Positions 7,058-31,600 of a stretch of 31,791 nucleotides of DNA are shown here, one piece after another. The position numbers were made by a program, and so were the translations under genes. Origin of the DNA: a virus; UHGV virus genome UHGV-1970909; one strand, 5' to 3'. The stretch's first letter is position 1. Every line of letters begins with the position of its first letter. The notes under the pieces are model-generated. The model saw only the letters and a program-made list of their open reading frames with translations. It did no database searches and was not told the DNA's origin.

Positions 7058-7642
7058 ATGTTTAAGTACGTTTTAGCACTAAATTTTATTTTTTTTGGCA
7101 ATACACACAACCTGATGAATTACTGGAAAGCGGAGGTTATCAGAAGAGAGAAATTTTCACTGCACCGTCTTTTAAGAGAGAAAAAACACCGGGGCAGAAA
7201 TTTTATTTTTTGGTGGCGCCTGGCAAATGAAATGTATTTGAATGGTGGGAAAATACACAAAAAAGCAGCAAAGCAAATCAATGCTCACCTGATGGAAAAA
7301 TTTGGCTGCGAAATATCACTTGGTGCAAATATTGGCAAAGGAATAAAAATTCCACATCATCATGGAATTGTCATTCATCATTTGGTAGACATAGGTGAAA
7401 ACTTAGTCATACGCCAAAACACAACAATCGGTCAAAAAGACAGCGATGGTAAATCCTTCAAATTGCACATTGGGGATAATGTTGATATTGGTGCAAACAC
7501 ATGTATTGTTGGCCTGAATCATACAATTGGAAATAATGTGAAAATTGGAGCGATGTCATTCGTTAACTGTGACATCCCGGATGATTGTACGCTTGTTACG
7601 ACTAAAACGACCCGATTCATTAGCCATAACAACATATCATAA
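7058..7642 (+). CDS. Cargo gene: left-handed beta-helix (hexapeptide-repeat) acetyl/acyltransferase, CysE/WcaB-like, 194 aa
   Basis: Translation contains tandem hexapeptide repeats (IGANIGKGIKIP..., IGENLVIRQNTTIGQKD, IGDNVDIGANTCIVGLNHTIGNNVKIGAMSFV); AT-rich; opposite strand to flanking tail genes; sits at the P2 Z/fun position between G and FI. Exact start uncertain. Confidence 0.7.
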   Translation: MFKYVLALNFIFFGNTHNLMNYWKAEVIRREKFSLHRLLREKKHRGRNFIFWWRLANEMYLNGGKIHKKAAKQINAHLMEKFGCEISLGANIGKGIKIPHHHGIVIHHLVDIGENLVIRQNTTIGQKDSDGKSFKLHIGDNVDIGANTCIVGLNHTIGNNVKIGAMSFVNCDIPDDCTLVTTKTTRFISHNNIS

Positions 7643-7695: not shown

Positions 7696-8271
7696 TTAAA
7701 TTTTATCCGGCCAGATAATGTCTGGTGCCTCGTCAGGAACAACCCGGTTTAGTAGTACCCTGTATTGTTTCCATGCCTTTAATTGCGAGATTTCACTCTC
7801 TGTTGCCATGTCAAAATCGACAGCGTCCTGTAAAGTCGCAATATTCTCGTTTGCATTTTTTAAAAGTGTATTTTTTAAATTCTTCGCATCCTCAATCTGT
7901 GCATTTTGCTTTGCAACCGCATCATCAACCCATACTTTACCATTCCATTTTTGCCACTGATTTTCAGGTGCAGCGGTTGTCGTCCCTGCCGGATATTTAC
8001 CCGGTTCGGTTATCTCCACCTGGTGACCTGTTTCAGTGTCATAGACAACCTCACCCCGATGGTCTTCAGTGGTATTCCAGCGCCCGTTTTCAGTGTCGTA
8101 AACGGGAATACATCCCGCGCTGGTTTCTGGCGGTTTTTCACTGGTACAACAGGCAGGAAGTCCGGTAAATGGTGGGATCAGTGCGTCACCTTTTTCAATA
8201 AATTCACAGGTATCTGCGCGATAGTTATAAACGGTAATTGTCCGGCTTTTCCCGGTCATTTTGAAAGTCAT
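7696..8271 (-). CDS. G: Tail fibre assembly chaperone gpG, 191 aa
   Basis: Immediately downstream of and 1-nt overlapping the tail fibre gene H; size and position as P2 G. Confidence 0.85.
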   Translation of the reverse strand: MTFKMTGKSRTITVYNYRADTCEFIEKGDALIPPFTGLPACCTSEKPPETSAGCIPVYDTENGRWNTTEDHRGEVVYDTETGHQVEITEPGKYPAGTTTAAPENQWQKWNGKVWVDDAVAKQNAQIEDAKNLKNTLLKNANENIATLQDAVDFDMATESEISQLKAWKQYRVLLNRVVPDEAPDIIWPDKI

Positions 8272-12402: not shown

Positions 12403-12789
12403 GGGGAAAGGATGCCGCCGGGGAGGGGCAGCAGCAATCGAGCGGGGTTTTATGAGGGATGAAACAACAAACGGCAACTCAGACTTGTCATTACAGACCA
12501 ACACCTCCTTTGAGGGGCTGATTGAAACCTAGTCGAACATCCAGCGTTGTTCCTTAGCTGCGTGACAATGTTTTTGAACACAGTATTGGCCAAAGCTGAG
12601 CCGAAATTGGCATCCTACGAAAAATTCGATTTCTCTAGCCAGTAGTTCGATTTTAGATTTTGTATTACCTTACTCAATGAGTTTTTGGTCAGATTTTTAA
12701 CACACTCAACGCCAAAAGCGGGCGCTCACGTAAACATATCCATTTTTGCTTGAGACATATTTACTATTACAGTGAGCAGTTTATCTGTT

Positions 12790-12820
12790 TTCCAAAAGAG
12801 GCAGAGGTATATTTCTGCCT
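12790..12820 (-). terminator. Candidate terminator of the AT-rich membrane-protein cargo gene
   Basis: Hairpin AGGCAG (12799-12804) / CTGCCT (12815-12820) with a 10-nt loop, 14 nt past the stop, followed on the minus strand by CTCTTTTGG. Confidence 0.35.
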
Positions 12821-12833
12821 AGCGCATGTTGCC

Positions 12834-13820
12834 TTATGGATTTGACTTACCTGAAGTCTCTTTTTTTATTTCAAATTTCCCACCCTTGAACATGATATTC
12901 GAATCTTTGATTCCATACAAAAGCATTTCATAAGGATGGTTAATTTTTTGTTCTTTTGTAGCGATACTGGAATTCATCAATTGCAACAAAGCCACATGAT
13001 GTTCACTCGCCCCTAACTCTACCATTTTGGTAGCCATGTTGCTTATCTGTTCTCGTTTTAAAAAATCTTCCCGGAGAGAAAGTAACGTTAAACTTCGTGC
13101 GTTACAAAACTTTATCATGTAAACAACAAACGCACCTAACCCAATATAGGAAAACGATAATGCTAAATAAATAGACGGTGTGGTTATTATGTTTTGCCCA
13201 AATATAAGAAAACCCAGCAGGCCAAAAAAATAAAAAACATTCACCAAAATAAACATGTTACTCATCAGAGCCTTTGTACTTCGAGTTGCATCATATTCTT
13301 TCTCCAGATGCTCCAAAAATGATGATATTTTTATTAAATTTAACTTTTCAATTGTTTCCTTCTCTAAAATCTTGAATTGCTCACTCTCTCTAATTAATTT
13401 TTTGGTAGTGTCCTCCACTGTATCATGCAATGATTCAGTGATCGCCTCTTCAATTTTATTTTCAGAAAACACGCTTGTTAAAGCGTAATTGGCTAATTCC
13501 TTTTGTCTTTTCTCGATTAAACTTTCGACATTTTCTCTGTACGCATCAAAATATTTTTGACCACTCTCGTTTAGCAATATTTTACGAATATGAAATTTTA
13601 TTTTCTCATCTGCCATTGGTTGGCTTTCAGTGTTACCATTCTTCTTTGTGTTATTATCTTTAGTTTCCGCATTATACCTGTCCTTGCCTGAATCAAGTAA
13701 GTTCCGTGAAATGAATTTCACCACAGGACCACGCAGAATAGCTATAGCTATTGCCATTGCAAGAATGAATGGTGAAGCATCAATAAATGATCGCGCAAAT
13801 ACGAAAGAGATTTCACTCAT
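12834..13820 (-). CDS. Cargo gene: predicted integral membrane protein with coiled-coil region (about 329 aa), function unknown
   Basis: AT-rich ORF in the gap between V and S (P2 orf30 position). Hydrophobic helices at FILAMAIAIAIL and FILVNVFYFFGLLGFLIFG...IYLALSFSYIGLGAFVVYMI, with a long charged K/E-rich middle. Start chosen at MSEISF (ATG with GGGAA 6 nt upstream); the six-frame ORF begins at an upstream TTG. Confidence 0.7.
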   Translation of the reverse strand: MSEISFVFARSFIDASPFILAMAIAIAILRGPVVKFISRNLLDSGKDRYNAETKDNNTKKNGNTESQPMADEKIKFHIRKILLNESGQKYFDAYRENVESLIEKRQKELANYALTSVFSENKIEEAITESLHDTVEDTTKKLIRESEQFKILEKETIEKLNLIKISSFLEHLEKEYDATRSTKALMSNMFILVNVFYFFGLLGFLIFGQNIITTPSIYLALSFSYIGLGAFVVYMIKFCNARSLTLLSLREDFLKREQISNMATKMVELGASEHHVALLQLMNSSIATKEQKINHPYEMLLYGIKDSNIMFKGGKFEIKKETSGKSNP

Positions 13821-14133
13821 AAACATTTCCCTATCTAAAATCAAAGAGTTTACTTTTACCCATATTTTCTACTGACTGAACCAGTTTGACAAGAGAGATA
13901 AGCATCTTTAATATCGATTTTGCCCATTAGGCATGAAAATAAAAAATACCACATGAAATCAATATCATACAATGACCACGCGTTGACCTCATCCATAACC
14001 AATAAATTATCTGATCATGAAATTCTTGATATGCATTGCAGAATTCGATTTCCACCATTTCGCTTTTAGATGTTCATCAAATATCAACACCCCACTATCA
14101 GTAGTTGACAGATCAACTCGTAGCTAATTCAAA

Positions 14134-19807: not shown

Positions 19808-19973
19808 TGTTCAGGTGTCCTGATGTTGGGTTTTCGGTTCGGGGGTAGTTTCCCGACTCCGCCCCACATCAGCCACCGCTTGCGGAAGTGCAACCCCTGA
19901 CACAACAGGGGGTTAGCGATAATACCCGGCTATTTCCTTAGCCTTGCCCCGTATTCACCAGTACGAGGCAACC
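19808..19973. promoter_or_regulatory. Divergent late promoter region (O operon leftward, P-Q rightward) with candidate activator dyad
   Basis: 166-bp intergenic region between divergent O and P; contains the 12-mer CTGACACAACAG (19897-19908) within an imperfect dyad AACCCCTG...CAGGGGGTT; the identical 12-mer lies upstream of FI. Confidence 0.5.
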
Positions 19974-21743
19974 ATGACCATTTCGACTGACCTCTCCCTT
20001 TTGCATGACCCTAGACGACAGGCGCGTCTGTTGTTCTGGCAGGGATTTTCCGTACCACAAATCGCCGACACGCTGCAGGTTAAGCGCCCGACCGTGCAGA
20101 GCTGGAAACAGCGCGACGGGTGGGAGGAAACCGCGCCACTTAACCGCGTGGAAACGACGCTCGAGGCGCGCCTGATTCAGCTTTATGCAAAGCCTGACCT
20201 GACGCCGCATGACTTCAAGGTCGCTGATTTTCTGTCACGCCAGATGGAGCGATTCGCACGCATCAACCGCTACGGTCAGACCGGAAACGAGGTGGATTTA
20301 AACCCCAATATTGCCAGCCGTAACAAGGGCGATCGCCGTAAGCCAAAACGTAATTTTTTCAGCGATGAGGCCATCGAAAAGCTGGAGGAGATTTTCTTCG
20401 ATCAGTCTTTTGAGTATCAGCTCAACTGGCACAAGGCCGGTATCGCGCACCGCATTCGCCACATCCTCAAATCACGCCAGATTGGCGCGACGTTCTACTT
20501 TGCCCGTGAGTCATTGCTGCGCGCCCTCAAAACCGGGCAAAACCAGATATTCTTATCGGCCAGTAAGACGCAGGCTTACGTGTTCCGAAAATACATCATC
20601 GCCTTTGCGCGCATGGTTGACGTCGACCTGTCAGGCGACCCGATTGTCATCGGCAATAACGGCGCAGAGCTGATTTTCCTCGGGACAAACTCAAACACCG
20701 CGCAGAGCCACAACGGCGACCTGTACGTCGATGAAATCTTCTGGATCCCCAACTTTCAGAGGCTGCGCAAAGTCGCCTCGGGGATGGCGTCACAGTCCCA
20801 CCTGCGCACCACCTACTTTTCAACCCCTTCGACGCTGGCGCACGGCGCGTATCCGTTCTGGTCAGGTGAGCTGTTTAACCGGGGACGCAGCAGCGCGAGT
20901 GAGCGCGTCGACATCGACATCAGTCACAAGGCGCTCGCCGGTGGCGTGCTGTGCGATGACGGCCAGTGGCGGCAGATTGTCACCATCGAGGACGCCCTCG
21001 CCGGGGGATGCACCCTGTTTAATCTGGATCAACTGAAACAGGAAAACAGCGCCGACGATTTCCGCAACCTCTTCATGTGCGAGTTTGTCGACGACAAGGC
21101 GTCGGTATTCCCGTTCGAGGAGCTGCAGCGCTGCATGGTCGATGCGATGGAAGAATGGGAAGACTTTGCGCCGTTCTCTGACCGTCCGTTTAACTGGCGC
21201 CCGGTCTGGATTGGCTATGACCCGTCGCACACCGGCGACAGTGCAGGCTGTGCGGTACTGGCTCCGCCGCTGGTTGCCGGTGGCAAGTTCCGCATCCTTG
21301 AGCGTCACCAGTGGAAAGGGATGGATTTTGCAACGCAGGCCGAGGCTATCCGCGAGCTGACAGAGAAATATTGCGTCGAGTATATCGGCATCGATGCAAC
21401 CGGCATCGGCCAGGGGGTGTACCAGCTCGTGCGCTCCTTCTTTCCGGCAGCCCGCGCCATTCACTACACGCCTGAAATGAAAACCGCAATGGTGCTGAAA
21501 GCGAAAGACACCATCCGTCGCGGATGCCTGGAATATGACGCCGGTGCAACCGACATCACACAGTCGTTTATGGCTATTCGTAAAACCATGACCAGCAGCG
21601 GGCGTAGCGCCACCTATGAAGCCAGCCGCAGTGAGGAAGCCAGCCACGCGGATATCGCATGGGCGACCATGCACGCCCTGTTAAACGAGCCGCTTTCCGC
21701 CGGTAGCGGGATGCAATCAACCTCAATTCTGGATATTAACTAA
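19974..21743 (+). CDS. P: Terminase large (ATPase) subunit gpP, 589 aa
   Basis: Start at the second Met (MTISTDLSLL) gives the P2 gpP length; divergent from O as in P2. Confidence 0.93.
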   Translation: MTISTDLSLLHDPRRQARLLFWQGFSVPQIADTLQVKRPTVQSWKQRDGWEETAPLNRVETTLEARLIQLYAKPDLTPHDFKVADFLSRQMERFARINRYGQTGNEVDLNPNIASRNKGDRRKPKRNFFSDEAIEKLEEIFFDQSFEYQLNWHKAGIAHRIRHILKSRQIGATFYFARESLLRALKTGQNQIFLSASKTQAYVFRKYIIAFARMVDVDLSGDPIVIGNNGAELIFLGTNSNTAQSHNGDLYVDEIFWIPNFQRLRKVASGMASQSHLRTTYFSTPSTLAHGAYPFWSGELFNRGRSSASERVDIDISHKALAGGVLCDDGQWRQIVTIEDALAGGCTLFNLDQLKQENSADDFRNLFMCEFVDDKASVFPFEELQRCMVDAMEEWEDFAPFSDRPFNWRPVWIGYDPSHTGDSAGCAVLAPPLVAGGKFRILERHQWKGMDFATQAEAIRELTEKYCVEYIGIDATGIGQGVYQLVRSFFPAARAIHYTPEMKTAMVLKAKDTIRRGCLEYDAGATDITQSFMAIRKTMTSSGRSATYEASRSEEASHADIAWATMHALLNEPLSAGSGMQSTSILDIN

Positions 21744-21744
21744 G

Positions 21745-22761
21745 ATGAAAAAACACCAAAAGAAAACCGCCAACATGACCGCCAGCGCACCGCAAAAAAT
21801 GGAGGCGTTCACCTTTGGTGAGCCTTCCCCCGTTCTGGATCGCCGCGACATCCTCGACTATGTCGAGTGCATCAATAACGGGAAATGGTACGAGCCGCCG
21901 GTCAACTTCTCGGGGCTGGCAAAAAGCCTGCGCGCCGCCGTCCATCACAGTTCCCCGATTTACGTGAAACGTAACATTCTGGCGAGCACCTACATTCCGC
22001 ACCCGTTGCTGTCACGTCAGGATTTCAGCCGCCTTGTGCTTGATTATCTGGTGTTTGCCAACGGCTATCTTGAAAAGCGCATGAGCGTCACCGGCCAGCT
22101 ATTAAAACTGGAAACCTCCCCGGCCAAATACACGCGGCGCGGTGTCGAGGATGGTGTTTACTGGTATGTATCGAGCTACACCCACCCGCACCCGTTCGCC
22201 CCCGGTTCGGTGTGTCATCTGCTTGAGCCCGATATCAATCAGGAGCTATACGGAATGCCGGAATACCTGAGCGCACTCAATTCAGCCTGGCTGAATGAAT
22301 CCGCCACCCTGTTTCGTCGCAAGTATTACCAGAACGGAGCACACGCGGGGTACATCATGTACGTCACCGACGCTGCGCAAAGCAGCACCGACGTTGAATC
22401 GCTCCGCAACGCGATGCGTGACTCGAAAGGGCTGGGGAATTTTAAGAACCTGTTTTTCTATGCGCCCAACGGGAAACCGGACGGGATCAAGATTGTGCCG
22501 TTGAGTGAAGTCGCCACGAAAGATGATTTTTTCAATATCAAAAAGGTGAGCGCCGCCGACCTGCTCGATGCGCACCGCGTGCCATTTCAGCTGATGGGCG
22601 GCAAGCCTGAAAACATCGGCTCAATGGGGGATGTCGAGAAGGTGGCGCGGGTGTTTGTGCGTAACGAACTGACACCGCTGCAAGAGCGTTTCAAAGAGAT
22701 TAACGACTGGCTGGGAATGGAGGTGATCCGCTTTAAAGATTACAGCCTCGAATCAGAATAA
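21745..22761 (+). CDS. Q: Portal (capsid vertex) protein gpQ, 338 aa
   Basis: Directly follows P and ends about 170 bp before cos, as in P2. Confidence 0.93.
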   Translation: MKKHQKKTANMTASAPQKMEAFTFGEPSPVLDRRDILDYVECINNGKWYEPPVNFSGLAKSLRAAVHHSSPIYVKRNILASTYIPHPLLSRQDFSRLVLDYLVFANGYLEKRMSVTGQLLKLETSPAKYTRRGVEDGVYWYVSSYTHPHPFAPGSVCHLLEPDINQELYGMPEYLSALNSAWLNESATLFRRKYYQNGAHAGYIMYVTDAAQSSTDVESLRNAMRDSKGLGNFKNLFFYAPNGKPDGIKIVPLSEVATKDDFFNIKKVSAADLLDAHRVPFQLMGGKPENIGSMGDVEKVARVFVRNELTPLQERFKEINDWLGMEVIRFKDYSLESE

Positions 22762-22795: not shown

Positions 22796-22927
22796 ACTGA
22801 GCGCCTCAGACGCACCACACACCACCTAACCACCCGGCAGGCATCAGCCCGACCCGTAAAGCGACAGCGCCACCACGACGCGCTCAGGTGCGTAAAAATA
22901 AATGCTGTCACCACGTCTGGCGCGCAG

Positions 22928-22946
22928 TGCTATCCCCGCCTCGCCT
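22928..22946 (-). other. cos: cos site (19-nt cohesive-end sequence, minus strand GGCGAGGCGGGGATAGCAC)
   Basis: One mismatch from the P2 cohesive end as I recall it (GGCGAGGCGGGGAAAGCAC); located just beyond Q as in P2/186. Confidence 0.7.
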
Positions 22947-23194
22947 GCGCGCTTGATGGGGCGGTTTTAATGCAGATGCCAGCTTCGATTTTTCCTTGTC
23001 AATATTGACTTGAGTTACCGAGAATTTAGTCTGAAAAAAATGCAAATTAATGCAACAGAATGCCTTGTTTTCGCAGAAAGCTATCTGAACTCAAAATGGT
23101 ATTTACAACCCCCTTGTATTGATTATCATTATGAAAATGCACGTTTTACTAATCTATCACAAAAAACTCATGCATCAGTTTTGAAGGAGTTAGC

Positions 23195-24460
23195 ATGAAT
23201 ATAATGAAATGTTTTGAATGCGAAACCTGTGGTACACACATTGATTGTAGAATAGGACTTTCAAATCGAGATGTGCAGCCTTTTCAGTTTGCTTGTCCTG
23301 AATGTGAAGAAAAAATTACTTTTAATATTTTGGGTGAAGACTTCAACCTAGAAGGGGCCATTGATCTTGTTGATTTTGAGGCACCATTTACGGGGGGTAA
23401 TCATTTCATAGATTTACACTTGGATTTTCCCGCCTCATTTGAAAAATATGAAATGGGATTTACTCCATTCATGCGAGCTGCTCAGGAAATCGGTCATGAG
23501 AACTATCAGCATCTTAATGAGAGACTGAATGCTCTTAACTACTTATACCCTAAAAAGAGAGAGTTAAGACGCTTAATAACTCAGTATAAACGAGGCGAAG
23601 TAAATACATTTCGAAAAACCTGCAATAAGCTTCTTGGTATACAATTAAAATCTAATAAGAAACAAGATATATTAGCCGCTTTGTATACAGCAACATCCAT
23701 AATGTCTTCACCTTTTACCATACATCAACATAATGAAGAAATAAGCACTAAAATGCCTGATTTATTACGTTCGCTTGATTACACTCACAAAATAAAAACA
23801 AGGGCGTTTTTTGAACAGTTAATTAAAACTGGTTTCTTACGAAATGTACACCATGAATGCCTATCCTTGTACCCAAAAATCGTAGAATTAGACCTACCAT
23901 TAAGGCCAGCCCTTTATTTTGACTACAAGCAATTAAATGAAGGGGATAAAATTTCAGGGCGGGTTTCAACTGCTGACTTTGATAGTTGCAGTAATTTATA
24001 TAAGGATCTATCTGAAGTCTTTTCGCGATTATTAACATTAGTTGCGGGGCTTAATAATCTGCTAAAACGTGGAGATTATGATCTGTTTGATGATTCAGTT
24101 CGTTTAAATAAAAAACAAGAATTAATTAAAGAACTTGCATCTTTAAATAATTTTACCAATATGGATTTAGGTAAAAAAATAGAGTGTATTGATGATTCAT
24201 TTTATTACATCGACAAGAGTGCAATTAATCACAAGTTACGAAATGCAATTGCCCATTATAAATATGAGTACGAAGAATCTACACAAATGATTTTCTATTA
24301 CCCAAATAGAGAAGGAATGAGCAGAGAGAACATGTATGAAATTTCATTTCTTGAATTTCTTAGATATTCTTTGATGCTTTTTCGTGAGGTTCATTCATTG
24401 AATCACATTGTTAAATCATTGTTTTTTTACACTGTGCTTGTTTTAAAGAAGGACATTTAA
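23195..24460 (+). CDS. Cargo gene: N-terminal zinc-ribbon + C-terminal HEPN-like (R-x4-H) domain protein, 421 aa; candidate abortive-infection RNase
   Basis: AT-rich ORF with a strong AAGGAG Shine-Dalgarno; N-terminus CFECETCGTH...ACPECEEK (C-x2-C...C-x2-C); C-terminal motif HKLRNAIAHYKYEY (R349-N-x3-H354, nt 24239-24256); sits between cos and A, where P2 carries tin/old. Confidence 0.75.
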   Translation: MNIMKCFECETCGTHIDCRIGLSNRDVQPFQFACPECEEKITFNILGEDFNLEGAIDLVDFEAPFTGGNHFIDLHLDFPASFEKYEMGFTPFMRAAQEIGHENYQHLNERLNALNYLYPKKRELRRLITQYKRGEVNTFRKTCNKLLGIQLKSNKKQDILAALYTATSIMSSPFTIHQHNEEISTKMPDLLRSLDYTHKIKTRAFFEQLIKTGFLRNVHHECLSLYPKIVELDLPLRPALYFDYKQLNEGDKISGRVSTADFDSCSNLYKDLSEVFSRLLTLVAGLNNLLKRGDYDLFDDSVRLNKKQELIKELASLNNFTNMDLGKKIECIDDSFYYIDKSAINHKLRNAIAHYKYEYEESTQMIFYYPNREGMSRENMYEISFLEFLRYSLMLFREVHSLNHIVKSLFFYTVLVLKKDI

Positions 24461-24471
24461 AGCTAAAGGTA

Positions 24472-24509
24472 AGCTATGTAAATTACGTTTTTAATTACAT
24501 AGCTTTTAT
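24472..24509 (+). terminator. Rho-independent terminator of the HEPN cargo gene
   Basis: About 12-bp stem AGCTATGTAA(A)TT (24472-24484) / AATTACATAGCT (24493-24504) with loop ACGTTTTT, followed by TTTTATCTG; 12 nt after the stop. Confidence 0.6.
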
Positions 24510-24568
24510 CTGTTAATAATCTTTACGAATTTCTCAGATATTTGTTTAAGATCTTATATTATCATAAC

Positions 24569-24751
24569 CTACTCAGTCTTATAAAAAATATCATCTTCGG
24601 TTTCATTATTTTCGCTGTTTGCTAGATCAGCAATGAGAGTGAGCGCAAGCTTTAAATCTGCAGGCTTGCAGTTTGCAATCAGAGATACCTCGGCAATGAA
24701 TTGCACACAAGCCCACTTTTGCTGCGTTCGGCTGAAATGTTCCCCAACCAT
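24569..24751 (-). CDS. Small SOS-regulated ORF (60 aa, acidic C-terminus); candidate Tum-like antirepressor
   Basis: ATG preceded by GGGAGAG; a strong LexA box and a TTGCCA -35 lie directly upstream; position (far end from the immunity region, near cos) matches the 186 tum arrangement, but the protein is shorter than 186 Tum (146 aa). Confidence 0.55.
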   Translation of the reverse strand: MVGEHFSRTQQKWACVQFIAEVSLIANCKPADLKLALTLIADLANSENNETEDDIFYKTE

Positions 24752-24771: not shown

Positions 24772-24791
24772 GACTGTATATTTATACAGTA
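24772..24791. promoter_or_regulatory. LexA (SOS) box GACTGTATATTTATACAGTA overlapping the -10 region of the small-ORF promoter
   Basis: CTGT-N8(AT-rich)-ACAG palindrome closely matching the consensus TACTGTATATATATACAGTA; minus strand shows TTGCCA -35 about 17 nt upstream of a TATAAA/TAAATA -10 inside the box. Confidence 0.7.
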
Positions 24792-24865: not shown

Positions 24866-27088
24866 TTAGTCACCTATTAGCTTTGATGTTTCTGCCAATG
24901 CTGCAACACGATTGAGGATTTCCCTGGCCTTAGCCTGGCGTGATGGTGAGGTGGAAAATATCTCCCCTTTAGATGTTCCCTTGAGCCATTTTCCATCGAA
25001 ACAGCTTTTACCACCGGCCATAAGATGCAGGGCTTCACCCCGGCTGATGTTGATGCCGGTTGTCAGATGGATCTCGTCGATAGTCTTCTCTATCGCGGCG
25101 TTTTGCTCATCCGTGCCGTGGATAAATTTCTCCCTTTTTGGTGGCTTTGGCTTCTTGAGTCGGTTCGTCAGCTCTCGCCTTTCACGTCTACTCAGAGGTT
25201 TTGATAAATCGAGTTCCGGCGGATCACTTTCGCTTCCCGTACAGTTATTGACAGAACTCCAAGGGACGGCGAAGCCGTCCTTAACGTCAACGGCCAAATC
25301 AACGGCACGCTTCGGTACAATTTTCCATTGCGTGAGCCGGGTTAAAATCGGGGTGCCAGCTCCGACAGCAGAATCGTATACACCACGAATGCAGACAGTT
25401 TCCTCACCATACTGGTTAATTTCGGTACGCGGTTCATAAAGCGTGCGCACCTGCAAATCATCGCGACGGACAAACGGACCGCCCTGCGCATTAACATAGC
25501 CAGCCCAATCACCGGCGTCGGCGGCATCATGGACAGCCGCAAACTCAACACTCAGACCGTGTGCGGTCTCGGTATCTGCAAGGCGACGCAATTCACGATA
25601 GACAGTAACCGGCGCACCGCCAATAAACTGAAACTGGCGTATATGCCAGCGAGCAGCCCATGCTGAAACAGCGGGAGCTGACTCTTTTAGCAGTTCGCCG
25701 CTTTCATCATCGGTTTCACCATCAAGAGCATAACCATCGATATTTTTCGAGATGTATTTCGCGACGTAGCCGGTTGCGCTGCCTTTCTCCGGATCAATGG
25801 CTTCTGCGTGGAAACGTGCTTTTTTGGCTTTATCGCTTTTGAGTTCGTGAAAATCTTCCTGCCATGCGTAGTCCCGAATAATGCCACGAACGGTATCGAC
25901 GTCCTCCGGGAGCATAAACATCAGCATATGCCAGTGAGGGCAACCGTCATGGTGAGGCTCTGCAACGCGGATCCCGAAAATACGAATGTCTTCACGGTGG
26001 AGTTTTGCGCGAATGCGTGCCCACAGGCCAGTGAGATAACATTGCGTATCGGATGGATTGGATCCACTCCATTTGGTGTTACGGTAGCCTGCCTTTGTCG
26101 TGGCGTGATATTTAGACGGTGCGGTCAGGGTGTAAAACTCACCAACATAACCGAGCTCATTGCAGATATTTTCAAACCCACGAATGCGGGTCATAAGCTC
26201 ACAGCGTCGAATCGCAGGGTTAGCGACTGAGCCATCGTATTTTTCAATCAGGCTGATACGGTTGCCGTCTTCGTCTTCAAGCTCCAGACCTTTGAGAAAT
26301 TCGCGCGTCCGGCGCTTCTGTTCACGCCAGTCTGTCACGCAGTGTTTACTCGCGTAGACATGTTTTTTCTTACTGACATTTCCGATTGCGATTTGCAGGT
26401 GTTCGCGCCACGCAGCCGCAACGCGACGCAGACGTCCACGCCACCATTTTTCCGAAAACATACGGGCAATTGCTGGAGCGACTTTATCCTGATCCCAATA
26501 TTTATCCCGCGACCGTTCCCACTCTGGTGGCATTATCCTGAATTGCTGAGTGATGAAACCAGCATGCATATACCAGGCATTTAATGTCTCCAGTTCACAC
26601 ATGTCAGAATCGTCAATGTTGACTAACTCTGCACGGATAAAATCGGCGATATCAGCAGCCAGCAGGTCGATGTCGGCGCGTGCCATATCCGGGAGTCGGT
26701 TGTATCTGGCGACTATGTTGACCATGCGAGACGCCAGATATTGCATAAGCTGGGTATCGAAATGACAACCGAAAACAGCGGCTGATACGTTGCTGTTAAT
26801 ACCGGTGCACTCGTATTTTTTTGCGACCAGTTCAAGACGCGGCAATGCCTTTTTGCAAAAGCTGATTAAAAAGGCATTGGCTCGTTGACTGCCCTGATTT
26901 TGCTCCAGCACAGCAGCGGTGCGATAAACATCAAAACGCACACATTCAGGCTGGAGAGAAAGCACCTTTCTCGCATGCAGCAAAGCCGCGAACATACGGT
27001 CACGGCGATACTGTTGGTCGTAGGTAAGATATGGACTGGTTATTGCCGACCGTGGAGCATTCCACGGAAAAGCGAATTGAACAGCCAA
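24866..27088 (-). CDS. A: Rolling-circle replication initiation protein gpA (HUH endonuclease), 740 aa
   Basis: Contains EPHHDGCPHWHMLMF (HUH-type motif) and GYVAKYISKNIDGYALDG (active-site tyrosine region) as in P2 A; six-frame start is TTG overlapping the upstream stop, so the true start is uncertain (first in-frame ATG is at residue 32). Confidence 0.9.
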   Translation of the reverse strand: MAVQFAFPWNAPRSAITSPYLTYDQQYRRDRMFAALLHARKVLSLQPECVRFDVYRTAAVLEQNQGSQRANAFLISFCKKALPRLELVAKKYECTGINSNVSAAVFGCHFDTQLMQYLASRMVNIVARYNRLPDMARADIDLLAADIADFIRAELVNIDDSDMCELETLNAWYMHAGFITQQFRIMPPEWERSRDKYWDQDKVAPAIARMFSEKWWRGRLRRVAAAWREHLQIAIGNVSKKKHVYASKHCVTDWREQKRRTREFLKGLELEDEDGNRISLIEKYDGSVANPAIRRCELMTRIRGFENICNELGYVGEFYTLTAPSKYHATTKAGYRNTKWSGSNPSDTQCYLTGLWARIRAKLHREDIRIFGIRVAEPHHDGCPHWHMLMFMLPEDVDTVRGIIRDYAWQEDFHELKSDKAKKARFHAEAIDPEKGSATGYVAKYISKNIDGYALDGETDDESGELLKESAPAVSAWAARWHIRQFQFIGGAPVTVYRELRRLADTETAHGLSVEFAAVHDAADAGDWAGYVNAQGGPFVRRDDLQVRTLYEPRTEINQYGEETVCIRGVYDSAVGAGTPILTRLTQWKIVPKRAVDLAVDVKDGFAVPWSSVNNCTGSESDPPELDLSKPLSRRERRELTNRLKKPKPPKREKFIHGTDEQNAAIEKTIDEIHLTTGINISRGEALHLMAGGKSCFDGKWLKGTSKGEIFSTSPSRQAKAREILNRVAALAETSKLIGD

Positions 27089-29507: not shown

Positions 29508-30536
29508 ATGAGTGTTAAAAAACTGACATCGGGTGAATGGCTTTGTGATTTCCGCGTCGACGGGGCTGAAAGTCGCCGCGTGCGTAAGAAGTTTTCAACC
29601 AAAGGTGAAGCCCTTGCCTTCGAGCAGTATTACCGAGAAGAGGCACAAAATAAGCCGTGGATGGGTGAGAAGGAAGACCGTCGACGTTTGAGTGAACTGA
29701 TTGAGCTTTGGCATAACCTCCATGGTCAGTCGCTCGCTGCCAGCAAATCACGATTGGCCAAACTGCACATTGTTTGCCGAGGTCTTGGTGATCCGATAGC
29801 AACCCAGCTTACCGCTAAAGATTTTGCCCATTATCGTGATAAGCGCCTCAAGGGTGAAATCGACAATGGCTATCACGCGAATCCTGAAAAGTGGATTGCG
29901 AAACCCGTCACTGTGAACCGGGAGCAGCAGTACCTTGAGGCCGTTTTCAATGAGCTGAAACGCTTGGGGGAGTGGAGTTTGCCAAATCCTCTCGAAGGTG
30001 TGCGAGTTTTCAAAGAAGCCGAAAAAGAAATGTCCTGGCTTACCCAGCCTCAAATTCGCGAAGTGCTCAACGCGTGTGAATGCTACGGAAAAATTTACTT
30101 AACTCGCATCGTCAAAGTATGCCTTGCGACCGGTGCTCGATGGAGCGAGGCCGAACGCCTTACTCGTTCACAGCTTTCGCCCCATAAGTTGACTTTCACG
30201 AAAACGAAGGGAAAGAAGAATCGTACAGTACCGATCCCTCGCTGGCTGTATGACGAGTTGGCTCCTTTGCAGGGAAAAATGTTCCACCCCTGTTATCAGG
30301 AGTTCAAGAAAATGCTCGCACTGACCGATATTGTGTTGGCTGAAGGGCAGAAGACCCACGTGTTACGCCATACGTTTGCAAGCCATTTTATGATGAATGG
30401 GGGTAACATCTTGGTACTCCAACGGATTCTTGGTCACGCGAACATACGGGAGACGATGCGTTATGCTCACTTTGCACCGGATCATTTAGAGGAAGCTGCT
30501 CAATTGAATCCAATTGCAAAACTTATTACTCATTGA
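29508..30536 (+). CDS. int: Tyrosine integrase, 342 aa
   Basis: C-terminal catalytic signature ...THVLRHTFASHFMMNGGNILVLQRILGHANIRETMRYAHF (H-x-x-R ... Y); downstream of cI. Confidence 0.93.
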   Translation: MSVKKLTSGEWLCDFRVDGAESRRVRKKFSTKGEALAFEQYYREEAQNKPWMGEKEDRRRLSELIELWHNLHGQSLAASKSRLAKLHIVCRGLGDPIATQLTAKDFAHYRDKRLKGEIDNGYHANPEKWIAKPVTVNREQQYLEAVFNELKRLGEWSLPNPLEGVRVFKEAEKEMSWLTQPQIREVLNACECYGKIYLTRIVKVCLATGARWSEAERLTRSQLSPHKLTFTKTKGKKNRTVPIPRWLYDELAPLQGKMFHPCYQEFKKMLALTDIVLAEGQKTHVLRHTFASHFMMNGGNILVLQRILGHANIRETMRYAHFAPDHLEEAAQLNPIAKLITH

Positions 30537-30595: not shown

Positions 30596-31600
30596 ATGCC
30601 TACCAATCGTACTAGATACTCATTTTTAAGCCCAATGAGTATCAGTGATAGCGTCAGTGTTTTTTTTGCAGCCCTTGATTTTTTTTCAATCCCTGGACAG
30701 GACAAGGTTAGGAAAACTATAGCTATACCTCAAACCAATAATGGTATTCATCCTCTTCCTGCTGGTTCTTTCATGGATTATATTAAGGCGTTAAATATTT
30801 TGGCTGAGCCTGATCGCCACATGCAAAATATACGAAAGCTACTTAACAAAATGGAAGGTGTAGGTTTGTTAGTACCTATGGGGAACTCTGGGAGTGTATT
30901 TTTCCCAACCAATTATTACTTCTTGAAAGAATTAACTGAGAGAGAAAAGAAAGGTCGATTCTGGTTGTCTGAATGCTTGGGGCCTGAGTATGTGTACAAG
31001 TTTTTTGGTAATTTAATCATACATATCGTAGGCATGACATCAGATGGAGATGAACATGGAGGCACTGGAGTTATTATTAATGATAAACTGGTTTTGACAT
31101 GCAAGCATGTAATCGATGAAATGGTTATCAATGATACTCAATTTATTAATGGTAGTCAGATCAAAGTAGTCAACACGCATACACATAATGAAATTGATGT
31201 TGGAATTATTGAGTTCGAACCAAATAGCTTTATTGTAAATGGGAATGTGTGTTTTGATTCTCCGCACTTAAATGATGATATATATGTTTTAGGCTATCCA
31301 CCAATTCCATATTCAAAAGAAGTTGCGCCAATAATGCAGAAAGGTGAGATTACTAACCCTGAAATTACTACATTGGATAATCATACGGTTTTTCTTTTCT
31401 CTGCTATAGCTAGACCTGGTAATAGTGGAGGTCCAATTATTGCTAGGAATGGCAGGATCCTTGGGATAGTCACGAAAGAGCTATCACTTCAAGAAAGCAA
31501 TAACTTCCCGTTCTTTGCGGGGATTCCAACAAATGAAATAGTAACAGCCCTCTCTGATATGGGGTTTGGAGGGATACTTCCTGTCGAAAATTATCAGTAG
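30596..31600 (+). CDS. Cargo gene: two-domain protein with C-terminal trypsin/chymotrypsin-like serine protease (H171, D201, S277 in GNSGGP) and an unrecognised N-terminal domain, 334 aa
   Basis: AT-rich ORF with a perfect AAGGAG Shine-Dalgarno; motifs TCKHVI, EIDVGIIEF and ARPGNSGGPII in H-D-S order; no signal peptide evident; sits between int and the right integrase arm repeats. Confidence 0.75.
   Translation: MPTNRTRYSFLSPMSISDSVSVFFAALDFFSIPGQDKVRKTIAIPQTNNGIHPLPAGSFMDYIKALNILAEPDRHMQNIRKLLNKMEGVGLLVPMGNSGSVFFPTNYYFLKELTEREKKGRFWLSECLGPEYVYKFFGNLIIHIVGMTSDGDEHGGTGVIINDKLVLTCKHVIDEMVINDTQFINGSQIKVVNTHTHNEIDVGIIEFEPNSFIVNGNVCFDSPHLNDDIYVLGYPPIPYSKEVAPIMQKGEITNPEITTLDNHTVFLFSAIARPGNSGGPIIARNGRILGIVTKELSLQESNNFPFFAGIPTNEIVTALSDMGFGGILPVENYQ

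Follow-up and report, generated by a model that had tools for sequence, protein, structure and literature searches.

A zinc-ribbon protein with a HEPN-type motif in a prophage defense hotspot: a candidate single-gene anti-phage RNase

RAZR (ring-activated zinc-finger RNase), formerly PD-T7-4, was discovered by Vassallo et al. (2022) and has since been characterized as a single protein of ~25 kDa, wherein an N-terminal four-cysteine (Cys4) zinc ribbon is joined to a divergent HEPN domain (DUF4145; R146, H154) (Zhang et al., Nature 2026, PMC13017515). Alone, RAZR is harmless; polymerization around the portal or Erf-like rings of a phage turns it into a non-specific RNase, and its specificity is set by the ribbon, which varies more than any other part of RAZR (PMC13017515). 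Because RAZR has been characterized, the pairing of a zinc ribbon with a HEPN-type domain in a single-gene abortive infection (Abi) protein is no longer unprecedented. Here we describe an open reading frame (ORF) of 421 amino acids at positions 23195..24460 (+ strand, from the ATG start through the stop codon) of the virus genome UHGV-1970909, the whole 31,791 nucleotides of which are hereafter called the window. The encoded protein comprises a zinc ribbon, a variable helical domain, and a domain with a HEPN motif, and the gene is foreign, horizontally acquired prophage cargo in P2 defense hotspot #1. We consider it a good candidate for a single-gene anti-phage suicide RNase.

Two bodies of earlier work frame the analysis. 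HEPN domains are defined by an R-x4-6-H motif in which a polar residue (N, D, or H) follows the arginine and which lies at the end of helix 3 (Anantharaman et al. 2013, PMC3710099). These domains also carry an upstream acidic residue, typically as E-x3-[KR], and an insert of variable sequence that precedes helix 3; a beta-hairpin comes directly after the motif in Csx1, and HEPN families share little besides these motifs (PMC3710099). The slot of P2 that lies between the portal and replication endonuclease genes is an experimentally established defense hotspot, from which most of the unknown genes tested proved to be defenses (Vassallo 2022; Rousset 2022).

Domain layout and conserved residues of the protein family

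Scans of the 421-amino-acid protein against Pfam, NCBIfam, and PADLOC yielded no model above threshold, and the PADLOC search returned zero matches at E values up to 10. This outcome agrees with the original prediction, made from the DNA sequence of the window alone, in which the protein was not recognized as any named system. The sole library match is PHROG 13366 (function unknown), which covers the full length of the protein. A word-indexed search recovered 281 relatives, every one of which is labeled ‘hypothetical’, and an exhaustive profile search expanded the family to 481 clusters at 50% identity, with members in Escherichia, Klebsiella, Enterobacter, Serratia, Proteus, Providencia, Vibrio, Pseudomonas, Shewanella, Aeromonas, and Cellvibrio. 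No member is given a name in any source examined, and a literature search using the identifiers CJA_3728, B3PHY5, D0UIZ7, and phrog_13366 found no paper.

The same prediction had placed a C-x2-C...C-x2-C zinc ribbon at the N terminus and an RNAIAH motif near the C terminus, and both features are borne out by the family. The ribbon cysteines are C9, C12, C34, and C37, which are conserved among homologs (additional cysteines occupy positions 6 and 18), and a CxxC-x(10-30)-CxxC pattern arises in just 0.15% of 20,000 shuffles of the protein. The RNAIAH sequence at residues 349 to 354 is the single match to R[NHDQ]x3H in the protein. R349, N350, and H354 do not vary among 39 close relatives, and neither do K270, R292, D324, K328, R397, H400, N403, H404, and K407. 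When the comparison is widened to 62 members that share ~20% identity, the sole invariant columns are C34, C37, R349, and H354, and at least 90% conservation is seen for C9, C12, R19, D271, E274, N288, and N350. As judged from these alignments, selection keeps the Cys4 zinc ribbon and the residues of the R-N-x3-H and D-x2-E-x3-R elements above all else in the protein, a pattern which indicates that a four-cysteine metal site and a few catalytic-type residues are retained while the remainder drifts.

An AlphaFold2 model based on the family alignment (predicted local distance difference test [pLDDT] score of 90.7; predicted template modeling [pTM] score of 0.90) divides the protein into three parts. 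The first, residues 1 to 75 (23195..23419, + strand), is the beta-rich Cys4 zinc-ribbon domain, with predicted strands between residues 2 and 75 and with conserved positions that include R19. In Foldseek searches, this domain weakly resembles small beta domains that bind zinc, and the Pfam model Cys_rich_CPXG matches 14 of the 62 members. The middle domain, residues 76 to 245 (23420..23929, + strand), is all-alpha, with helices spanning residues 91 to 243, and it displays the highest column entropy in both alignments, wherein the ribbon is as conserved as the C-terminal domain. The middle domain thus varies more than the rest of the protein, and we regard it as a candidate specificity or sensor surface.

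The third part, residues 246 to 421 (23930..24457, + strand), is the domain that carries the sequence hallmarks of HEPN proteins. It begins with a long helix (residues 262 to 292) that bears the sequence Y-x-D271-x2-E274-x3-R278, an acidic E-x3-[KR] element whose codons for D271 through R278 occupy 24005..24028 (+ strand). A poorly conserved insert (residues 293 to 345), where the domain varies most, separates this helix from a short motif helix (residues 346 to 354). The R349-N350-A-I-A-H354 codons lie at 24239..24256 (+ strand). A three-stranded beta-hairpin region (residues 356 to 384) and a long last helix (residues 385 to 416) complete the predicted domain.

Two peculiarities of the database entries deserve mention. 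Many entries, especially those with WP_ accessions (for example, in the clusters of P0021, P0053, and P0069), are 400 amino acids long, start at a methionine equivalent to residue 22, and consequently begin after the first CxxC pair. These shorter forms look like start-site miscalls, because the 421-amino-acid call is also found for identical or near-identical loci, and because the window protein carries a leucine at position 22 and has a strong ribosome-binding site at the upstream ATG. Separately, five divergent members (P0230, P0249, P0257, P0266, and P0268) end in a SEC-C-type CxCGSGxKxKxCC metal-binding tail. PADLOC matches of these five distant members to PDC-S12 and to CBASS E1-E2/E2 were rejected as signs of kinship, as they are confined to the SEC-C tail of ~25 residues.

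Relationship of the C-terminal domain to HEPN proteins

The C-terminal domain exhibits each of the sequence features by which HEPN domains are recognized. The arginine of the motif is followed by a polar residue (R349-N350-x3-H354) that is itself among the most conserved in the family. As read from the AlphaFold2 secondary structure only (DSSP assignment), the motif helix terminates exactly at H354 and is followed by the hairpin, as in Csx1, and then by the last long helix. Upstream, the E274-x3-R278 element resides on the first long helix, where position 278 is mostly R or K, and it is separated from the motif by the variable insert. Thus, the HEPN sequence hallmarks are all present, in the correct order and at the correct secondary-structure positions.

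Profile comparisons point to one HEPN family in particular. In a permissive Pfam scan of the 62 members, sub-threshold matches to HEPN pEK499_p136 (PF18736) were observed for three proteins (E about 0.005) and to Abi_2 for one (E=0.004). The pEK499 protein was confirmed as PF18736, and an alignment of 42 sequences was built for this comparison family. When the profiles were aligned by using hhalign, the full-length protein yielded a probability of 44%, and the C-terminal domain alone yielded 71% (P=3.7e-5), as compared with 0.6% for a control consisting of the N-terminal and middle region. The score for the real profile is 35.1, versus at most 18.8 for reversed and shuffled profiles. Reciprocal hidden Markov model searches between the C-terminal domain and the HEPN family gave 110 matches out of 120, always on the motif region, compared with 8 of 120 for the control.

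Several results weigh against assigning this domain to the HEPN superfamily. The R[NHDQ]x3H pattern arises in 12.9% of the shuffled sequences, and therefore a HEPN-type motif in one sequence is weak evidence alone; the RNAIAH motif gains its significance because R349 and H354 are, with C34 and C37, the only invariant columns among homologs as distant as those in the larger alignment. When the seven motif residues were deleted from both profiles, hhalign detected nothing significant (P=0.17-0.26). The link to HEPN pEK499_p136 is therefore real but at the level of the motif only, and we downgraded an earlier interpretation of domain-level homology to a motif-level match. A link of this kind is usual between HEPN families, yet from the sequences convergence would be compatible with it as well.

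Structure and library searches add to these points. Neither the full model nor a separate model of residues 199 to 421 (pLDDT 87.7) gave a Foldseek match in the PDB at E<0.001 or retrieved a HEPN protein; for both models, generic long four-helix bundles ranked highest. A Foldseek search of BFVD with the full model gave no significant match. PDB sequences searched with the profiles A1 and A2 yielded noise only, such as histones, designed helical repeats, and zinc fingers. The Pfam, PADLOC, and NCBIfam libraries contain no model that the protein matches at threshold: the Pfam scan of the 421-amino-acid protein contains no PF18736 match whatsoever, and no Pfam HEPN model is at threshold for this protein or for the 62 members. 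Structure prediction and a Pfam search had been suggested as ways to reveal a HEPN fold, and neither has done so. What survives of the proposed HEPN-type domain is the conserved R-N-x3-H and E-x3-R residues with all the hallmarks in order; a match at the level of the fold did not emerge, and the similarity is confined to the motifs.

An alternative explanation is that the protein is a defense or conflict effector of a different kind, in which the invariant arginine and histidine, together with the conserved D, E, and N residues, form the active site of a new helical fold. The R-N-x3-H motif would then be convergent, and the substrate could be DNA, nucleotides, NAD+, or the modification of tRNA. 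We consider this unlikely. It would explain why two confident models have no HEPN structural neighbor, why the profile similarity is lost upon deletion of the motif, and why a pattern frequent by chance is present, and the additional residues that are invariant in the close family (K270 through K407 in the list above) suggest a site more elaborate than a minimal HEPN center. This explanation would also require that four HEPN sequence hallmarks coincide in the right order and at the right secondary-structure positions, and the loss of similarity outside the motifs is less telling given how little else the known HEPN families share (PMC3710099). We favor the HEPN assignment and consider it likely, if well short of assured, that the C-terminal domain represents a genuine but divergent RNase domain of the HEPN type.

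A mobile, self-contained gene among defense systems

The gene stands out sharply from its surroundings. Its guanine-cytosine (GC) content is 0.329, versus 0.542 for the portal gene, 0.508 for replication gene A, and ~0.54 for the flanks, and this sharp trough coincides with an AT-rich cargo island (22976..24550; GC 0.325) that is delimited by composition and by the limits of DNA similarity. Similarity to related phages ends at ~22975 on the left and restarts at ~24550 on the right. For PSP3, SEN1, and E. coli prophages, DNA similarity of 86-88% is restricted to the tumA/A and cos sides and excludes the island, which indicates that the phage is 186/PSP3-like and not P2 itself. The ORF occupies the slot equivalent to the old/tin position of P2. 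Identical copies of the gene are found in the same prophage slot, and relatives place other cargo there, as PSP3 and E. coli MINF_2E carry different genes between the portal gene and gene A. The expectation that an AT-rich gene lies between cos and gene A is thus borne out by the coordinates, the GC trough, and the flanking genes, and the suggested check of this slot in related prophages shows that its content varies.

To the left of the ORF are the genes for the large terminase (19944-21743) and the portal protein Q (21745-22761, + strand). To its right are a TumA-like ORF of 60 amino acids (24569-24751, − strand) and the replication endonuclease gene A (24866-27088, − strand). A P2-type, cos-like 19-mer, GTGCTATCCCCGCCTCGCC, read directly from the sequence at 22927-22945 as a landmark of the context, is the reverse complement of GGCGAGGCGGGGATAGCAC and differs by one mismatch from what we take to be the P2 cos sequence.

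This position beside cos, portal, and replication genes is the only observation that would favor a core, housekeeping function for the gene in P2/186-like phages. No record of the phage collection contains the gene at the DNA level, nor do PSP3, SEN1, or the 186-like prophages of E. coli, its GC content is 0.33 against ~0.54 in the flanks, and it also occurs on unrelated phage backbones and chromosomal islands. Such a patchy distribution effectively excludes a core phage function.

The ORF also appears to carry its own expression signals. A Shine-Dalgarno sequence, GAAGGAG, is located at 23183-23189 (+ strand), 5 nt upstream of the ATG, and accounts for the strong ribosome-binding site noted previously. 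The best σ70-like promoter candidate of the region, TTTACA-16-TATCAT (23102..23129, + strand; 10 of 12 positions), lies ~65 nt 5′ of the ATG; it is a consensus match only, and the region holds no more sites of this kind than expected from shuffling. Downstream, an AT-rich hairpin followed by a U-run (24471..24511, + strand) is a plausible terminator, in keeping with the proposal that the gene has one of its own. Its perfect 11-bp arms (24471-24481 and 24495-24505) precede the sequence UUUUAU, and its predicted folding free energy is −13.9 kcal/mol (z = −2.9). Because its stem is AT-rich, this hairpin was overlooked by a consensus terminator scanner. It is situated between the convergent 421-amino-acid ORF and tumA and plausibly serves as a terminator common to both.

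Some features of the slot are of separate note. The TumA-like ORF is kept in the window, and the TumB/DinI gene and the small ORFs found at this place in PSP3 and in relatives from E. coli are missing; the AT-rich island appears to have been substituted for them. Just upstream of tumA, at 24774-24789, is CTGTATATTTATACAG, which was detected by Tandem Repeats Finder as a 13-nt repeat and which fits CTGT-N8-ACAG, the pattern of a LexA box. In a P2-like contig from IMG/VR (L026, 3960-11056), the slot between portal and gene A is ~7.1 kb long and holds an 81%-identical homolog that is flanked by other sequence (~2 kb on its upstream side and 3.8 kb on its downstream side), and therefore the hotspot can stack several cargo genes.

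Homologs of the gene recur in defense-associated locations on unrelated backbones. In a true P2-type prophage of Serratia, the homolog is in the slot between portal and gene A, behind an NsnA/PD-T4-2_A-like gene and a HEPN_RiboL-PSP gene, and in a lambdoid prophage of Proteus it occupies an opposite-strand moron position between the antiterminator Q gene and the lysis genes. The Cellvibrio homolog directly follows a Gabija pair (GajA 1e-201, GajB 8e-252), and the homolog in the proA/thrW island of Klebsiella follows a three-gene Hp1-3 system; E. coli ETEC6 has a homolog in that same island. A Vibrio homolog resides on a recombinase-bearing element with GmrSD and a methylase, and one on a Pseudomonas island is accompanied by PDC-M04A-like and restriction-enzyme-like genes. 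Of 11 IMG/VR contigs with the gene, two are P2-like and carry it between portal and gene A, and the other nine have different backbones. Such surroundings would fit equally an effector without a HEPN fold, as the Gabija, Hp1-3, and Serratia examples illustrate.

No neighboring gene or RNA partner is shared across the contexts examined, and the neighbors differ in every lineage. The window contains no co-oriented partner ORF, no tandem repeat, and no Rfam match, and thus neither the adjacent co-transcribed antitoxin gene nor the repeated RNA that would mark a toxin-antitoxin system is found there. Therefore, the gene is a mobile module that accompanies defense systems and is self-contained, as the original prediction had supposed, and it moves singly between unrelated prophages and defense islands. 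Two candidate partners in the window were rejected. A type III antitoxin or hidden RNA was dismissed for want of an Rfam match or tandem repeat, and a TTG-initiated ORF of 62 amino acids (23010-23198) was taken as spurious, since it has no family match and is uncalled in identical loci.

Possible partners were noticed in individual lineages. In Cellvibrio japonicus only, an ORF of 89 amino acids (L005:9263-9532) runs in the direction of the homolog and overlaps its stop codon by 4 nt. This ORF, which has no counterpart in the window, matches DUF4019 weakly and no PADLOC model, and it could encode an accessory or immunity partner specific to that lineage. In Klebsiella (L008:7227-7754) and E. 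coli ETEC6 (L024:7763-8290), a gene for a 175-amino-acid MtlR/MltR-family protein lies ~250 bp upstream of the homolog in the same orientation. Because MtlR is listed as a HEPN-fold family in the 2013 survey (PMC3710099), this protein may be a second HEPN-like partner in the proA/thrW-island lineage.

We propose that the ORF product is a self-contained, single-protein anti-phage effector of the abortive infection type. The protein would be made in the lysogen from its own promoter in an inactive form. Upon superinfection, the N-terminal ribbon, the variable middle helical domain, or both would bind a component of the incoming phage, and this activation would cause the C-terminal domains to pair or oligomerize into a composite, metal-independent HEPN-type RNase site. 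The resulting cleavage of RNA would arrest translation, such that the infected cell releases no phage. This mechanism would follow the logic demonstrated for RAZR/PD-T7-4, as carried by a different and larger protein family. It counts against the proposal that defense, toxicity, RNA cleavage, oligomerization, and the trigger are all inferred for this family; we place the whole chain of a phage-triggered, single-protein Abi effector with a divergent HEPN-type RNase just on the probable side of even.

The same contexts bear on the possibility that the gene is cargo with a purpose other than defense, for example an addiction or stabilization toxin, a zinc-ribbon regulator that binds nucleic acids, or a counter-defense or lysogenic-conversion factor. 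Not every moron in the slot between portal and gene A is a defense, a strongly conserved ribbon suits housekeeping-like binding rather than a sensor engaged in an arms race, and some loci outside prophages, such as part of the Pseudomonas island, have no flanking defense genes. Nevertheless, bona fide defense systems adjoin the gene in several unrelated genomes, its location is an experimentally validated defense hotspot, the invariant catalytic-type arginine and histidine favor an enzyme over a pure regulator, and no cognate antitoxin gene or RNA is present in the window. Cargo of this kind is decidedly unlikely, and we retain the anti-phage effector as the preferred reading.

Other AT-rich regions of the window may also hold cargo. 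A second island (12501-14000; GC 0.34-0.38) includes an ORF of 336 amino acids (12834..13844, − strand) between baseplate gpV-like and tail-completion gpS-like genes, which is the ‘orf30’ position of P2. Neither Pfam (DUF2852 at E=0.0025, below threshold) nor PADLOC recognizes this ORF, and it is another cargo or defense candidate. An AT-rich ORF of 194 amino acids (7058-7642, + strand) adjoins a tail-fiber assembly gene (7696-8271, − strand); it exhibits weak matches to hexapeptide-repeat (LbH acyltransferase-like) proteins and may be a receptor- or O-antigen-modifying moron. Finally, an AT-rich gene for a trypsin-like peptidase (30596-31600, + strand) lies just past the integrase gene (29508-30536) in an arrangement that is the same in identical loci, and it belongs either to the flanking host DNA or to additional cargo at the edge of the prophage.

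If its proposed activity is confirmed, the family will constitute a new and widespread single-gene anti-phage system, given its 481 clusters. Pfam, NCBIfam, and PADLOC 2.0 all miss the family, and therefore defense annotation built on those models misses it too. At 1.3 kb, and with its own ribosome-binding site and terminator, the self-contained gene is easy and cheap to clone and test.

Comparison with known defense proteins

By its location and the logic of its orientation, the gene resembles old and tin of P2, which lie between cos/portal and gene A; like them, it would be expressed on its own as a moron and exclude other phages. It has no sequence relationship to either, as neither the Old nor the Tin model of PADLOC matches the 421-amino-acid protein, and its predicted chemistry differs from that of Old, which is an ATPase-TOPRIM nuclease. 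The concept of an Abi system made of one protein is shared with the lactococcal Abi_2 proteins (AbiD/AbiD1/AbiF) and with AbiJ and AbiU2, which carry motifs of the R-N-x2-A-H type. These lactococcal HEPN proteins are known from plasmids of Firmicutes. They differ from the present family in that they have no Cys4 ribbon, and no family-level match connects the two.

HEPN pEK499_p136 (PF18736) gave the best profile-profile match, wherein [LM]-R-N-[AS]-[IV]-A-H is followed by a strand-turn-strand arrangement. The N-terminal helix with its Y-x-D...R sequence aligns in register at relaxed stringency, and the domain sizes are similar, at 166 amino acids for pEK499_p136 and ~160 for residues 262 to 421 of our protein. 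The pEK499_p136 family is also linked to restriction-modification, Pgl, and other defense loci. Unlike the protein described here, its members are stand-alone domains of ~160 amino acids that have neither a zinc ribbon nor a middle domain. A HEPN domain fused to a zinc ribbon (Npun_R5629) is a further possible relative.

The comparison with RAZR/PD-T7-4 concerns overall design. Both are encoded by a single gene on mobile elements with no antitoxin, and both join an N-terminal Cys4 ribbon to a helical domain at the C terminus that bears a conserved HEPN-type Arg...His pair. By analogy, a silent enzyme that is activated by a phage protein, cleaves RNA non-specifically, and causes abortive infection would be expected here as well. 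The RAZR sequence was represented in our comparison by the PADLOC PD-T7-4 and Pfam DUF4145 models as proxies, and neither model matches the 421-amino-acid protein or any of the 62 members. The protein is twice the length of RAZR (421 versus ~220 amino acids) and includes an additional helical domain, ~170 residues long, that separates its ribbon from its catalytic region; its R-N-x3-H motif has a spacing of 4, unlike the R146 and H154 pair of RAZR. Moreover, variation in RAZR is greatest in the ribbon, whereas in the present family the ribbon equals the catalytic domain in conservation and variation is greatest in the middle domain. On the basis of these sequence comparisons, the protein is not a detectable member of the RAZR/PD-T7-4 family, although it has the same design logic.

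A bolder interpretation, which we entertain tentatively, is rather unlikely. The protein might be the founding member of an undescribed, widespread family of single-protein immune sensor-effectors, wherein the RNase-type R-N-x3-H motif is set in a fold that escapes structure searches, be it a strongly remodeled HEPN or a convergent new RNase fold, and the hypervariable helical domain between ribbon and catalytic domain, not the ribbon, recognizes the phage. If so, the family would couple sensor to RNase in a manner alternative to that of RAZR, possibly again through oligomerization templated by the trigger. Should the preferred reading of a HEPN-type Abi effector be confirmed, the protein would provide a second, independent example of the zinc-ribbon and HEPN-like design after RAZR, whose activation by assembly around portal rings of phages was solved only recently. 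Comparison of the two could then reveal the essential parts of that design, since the ribbon is conserved in the present family and a different domain varies.

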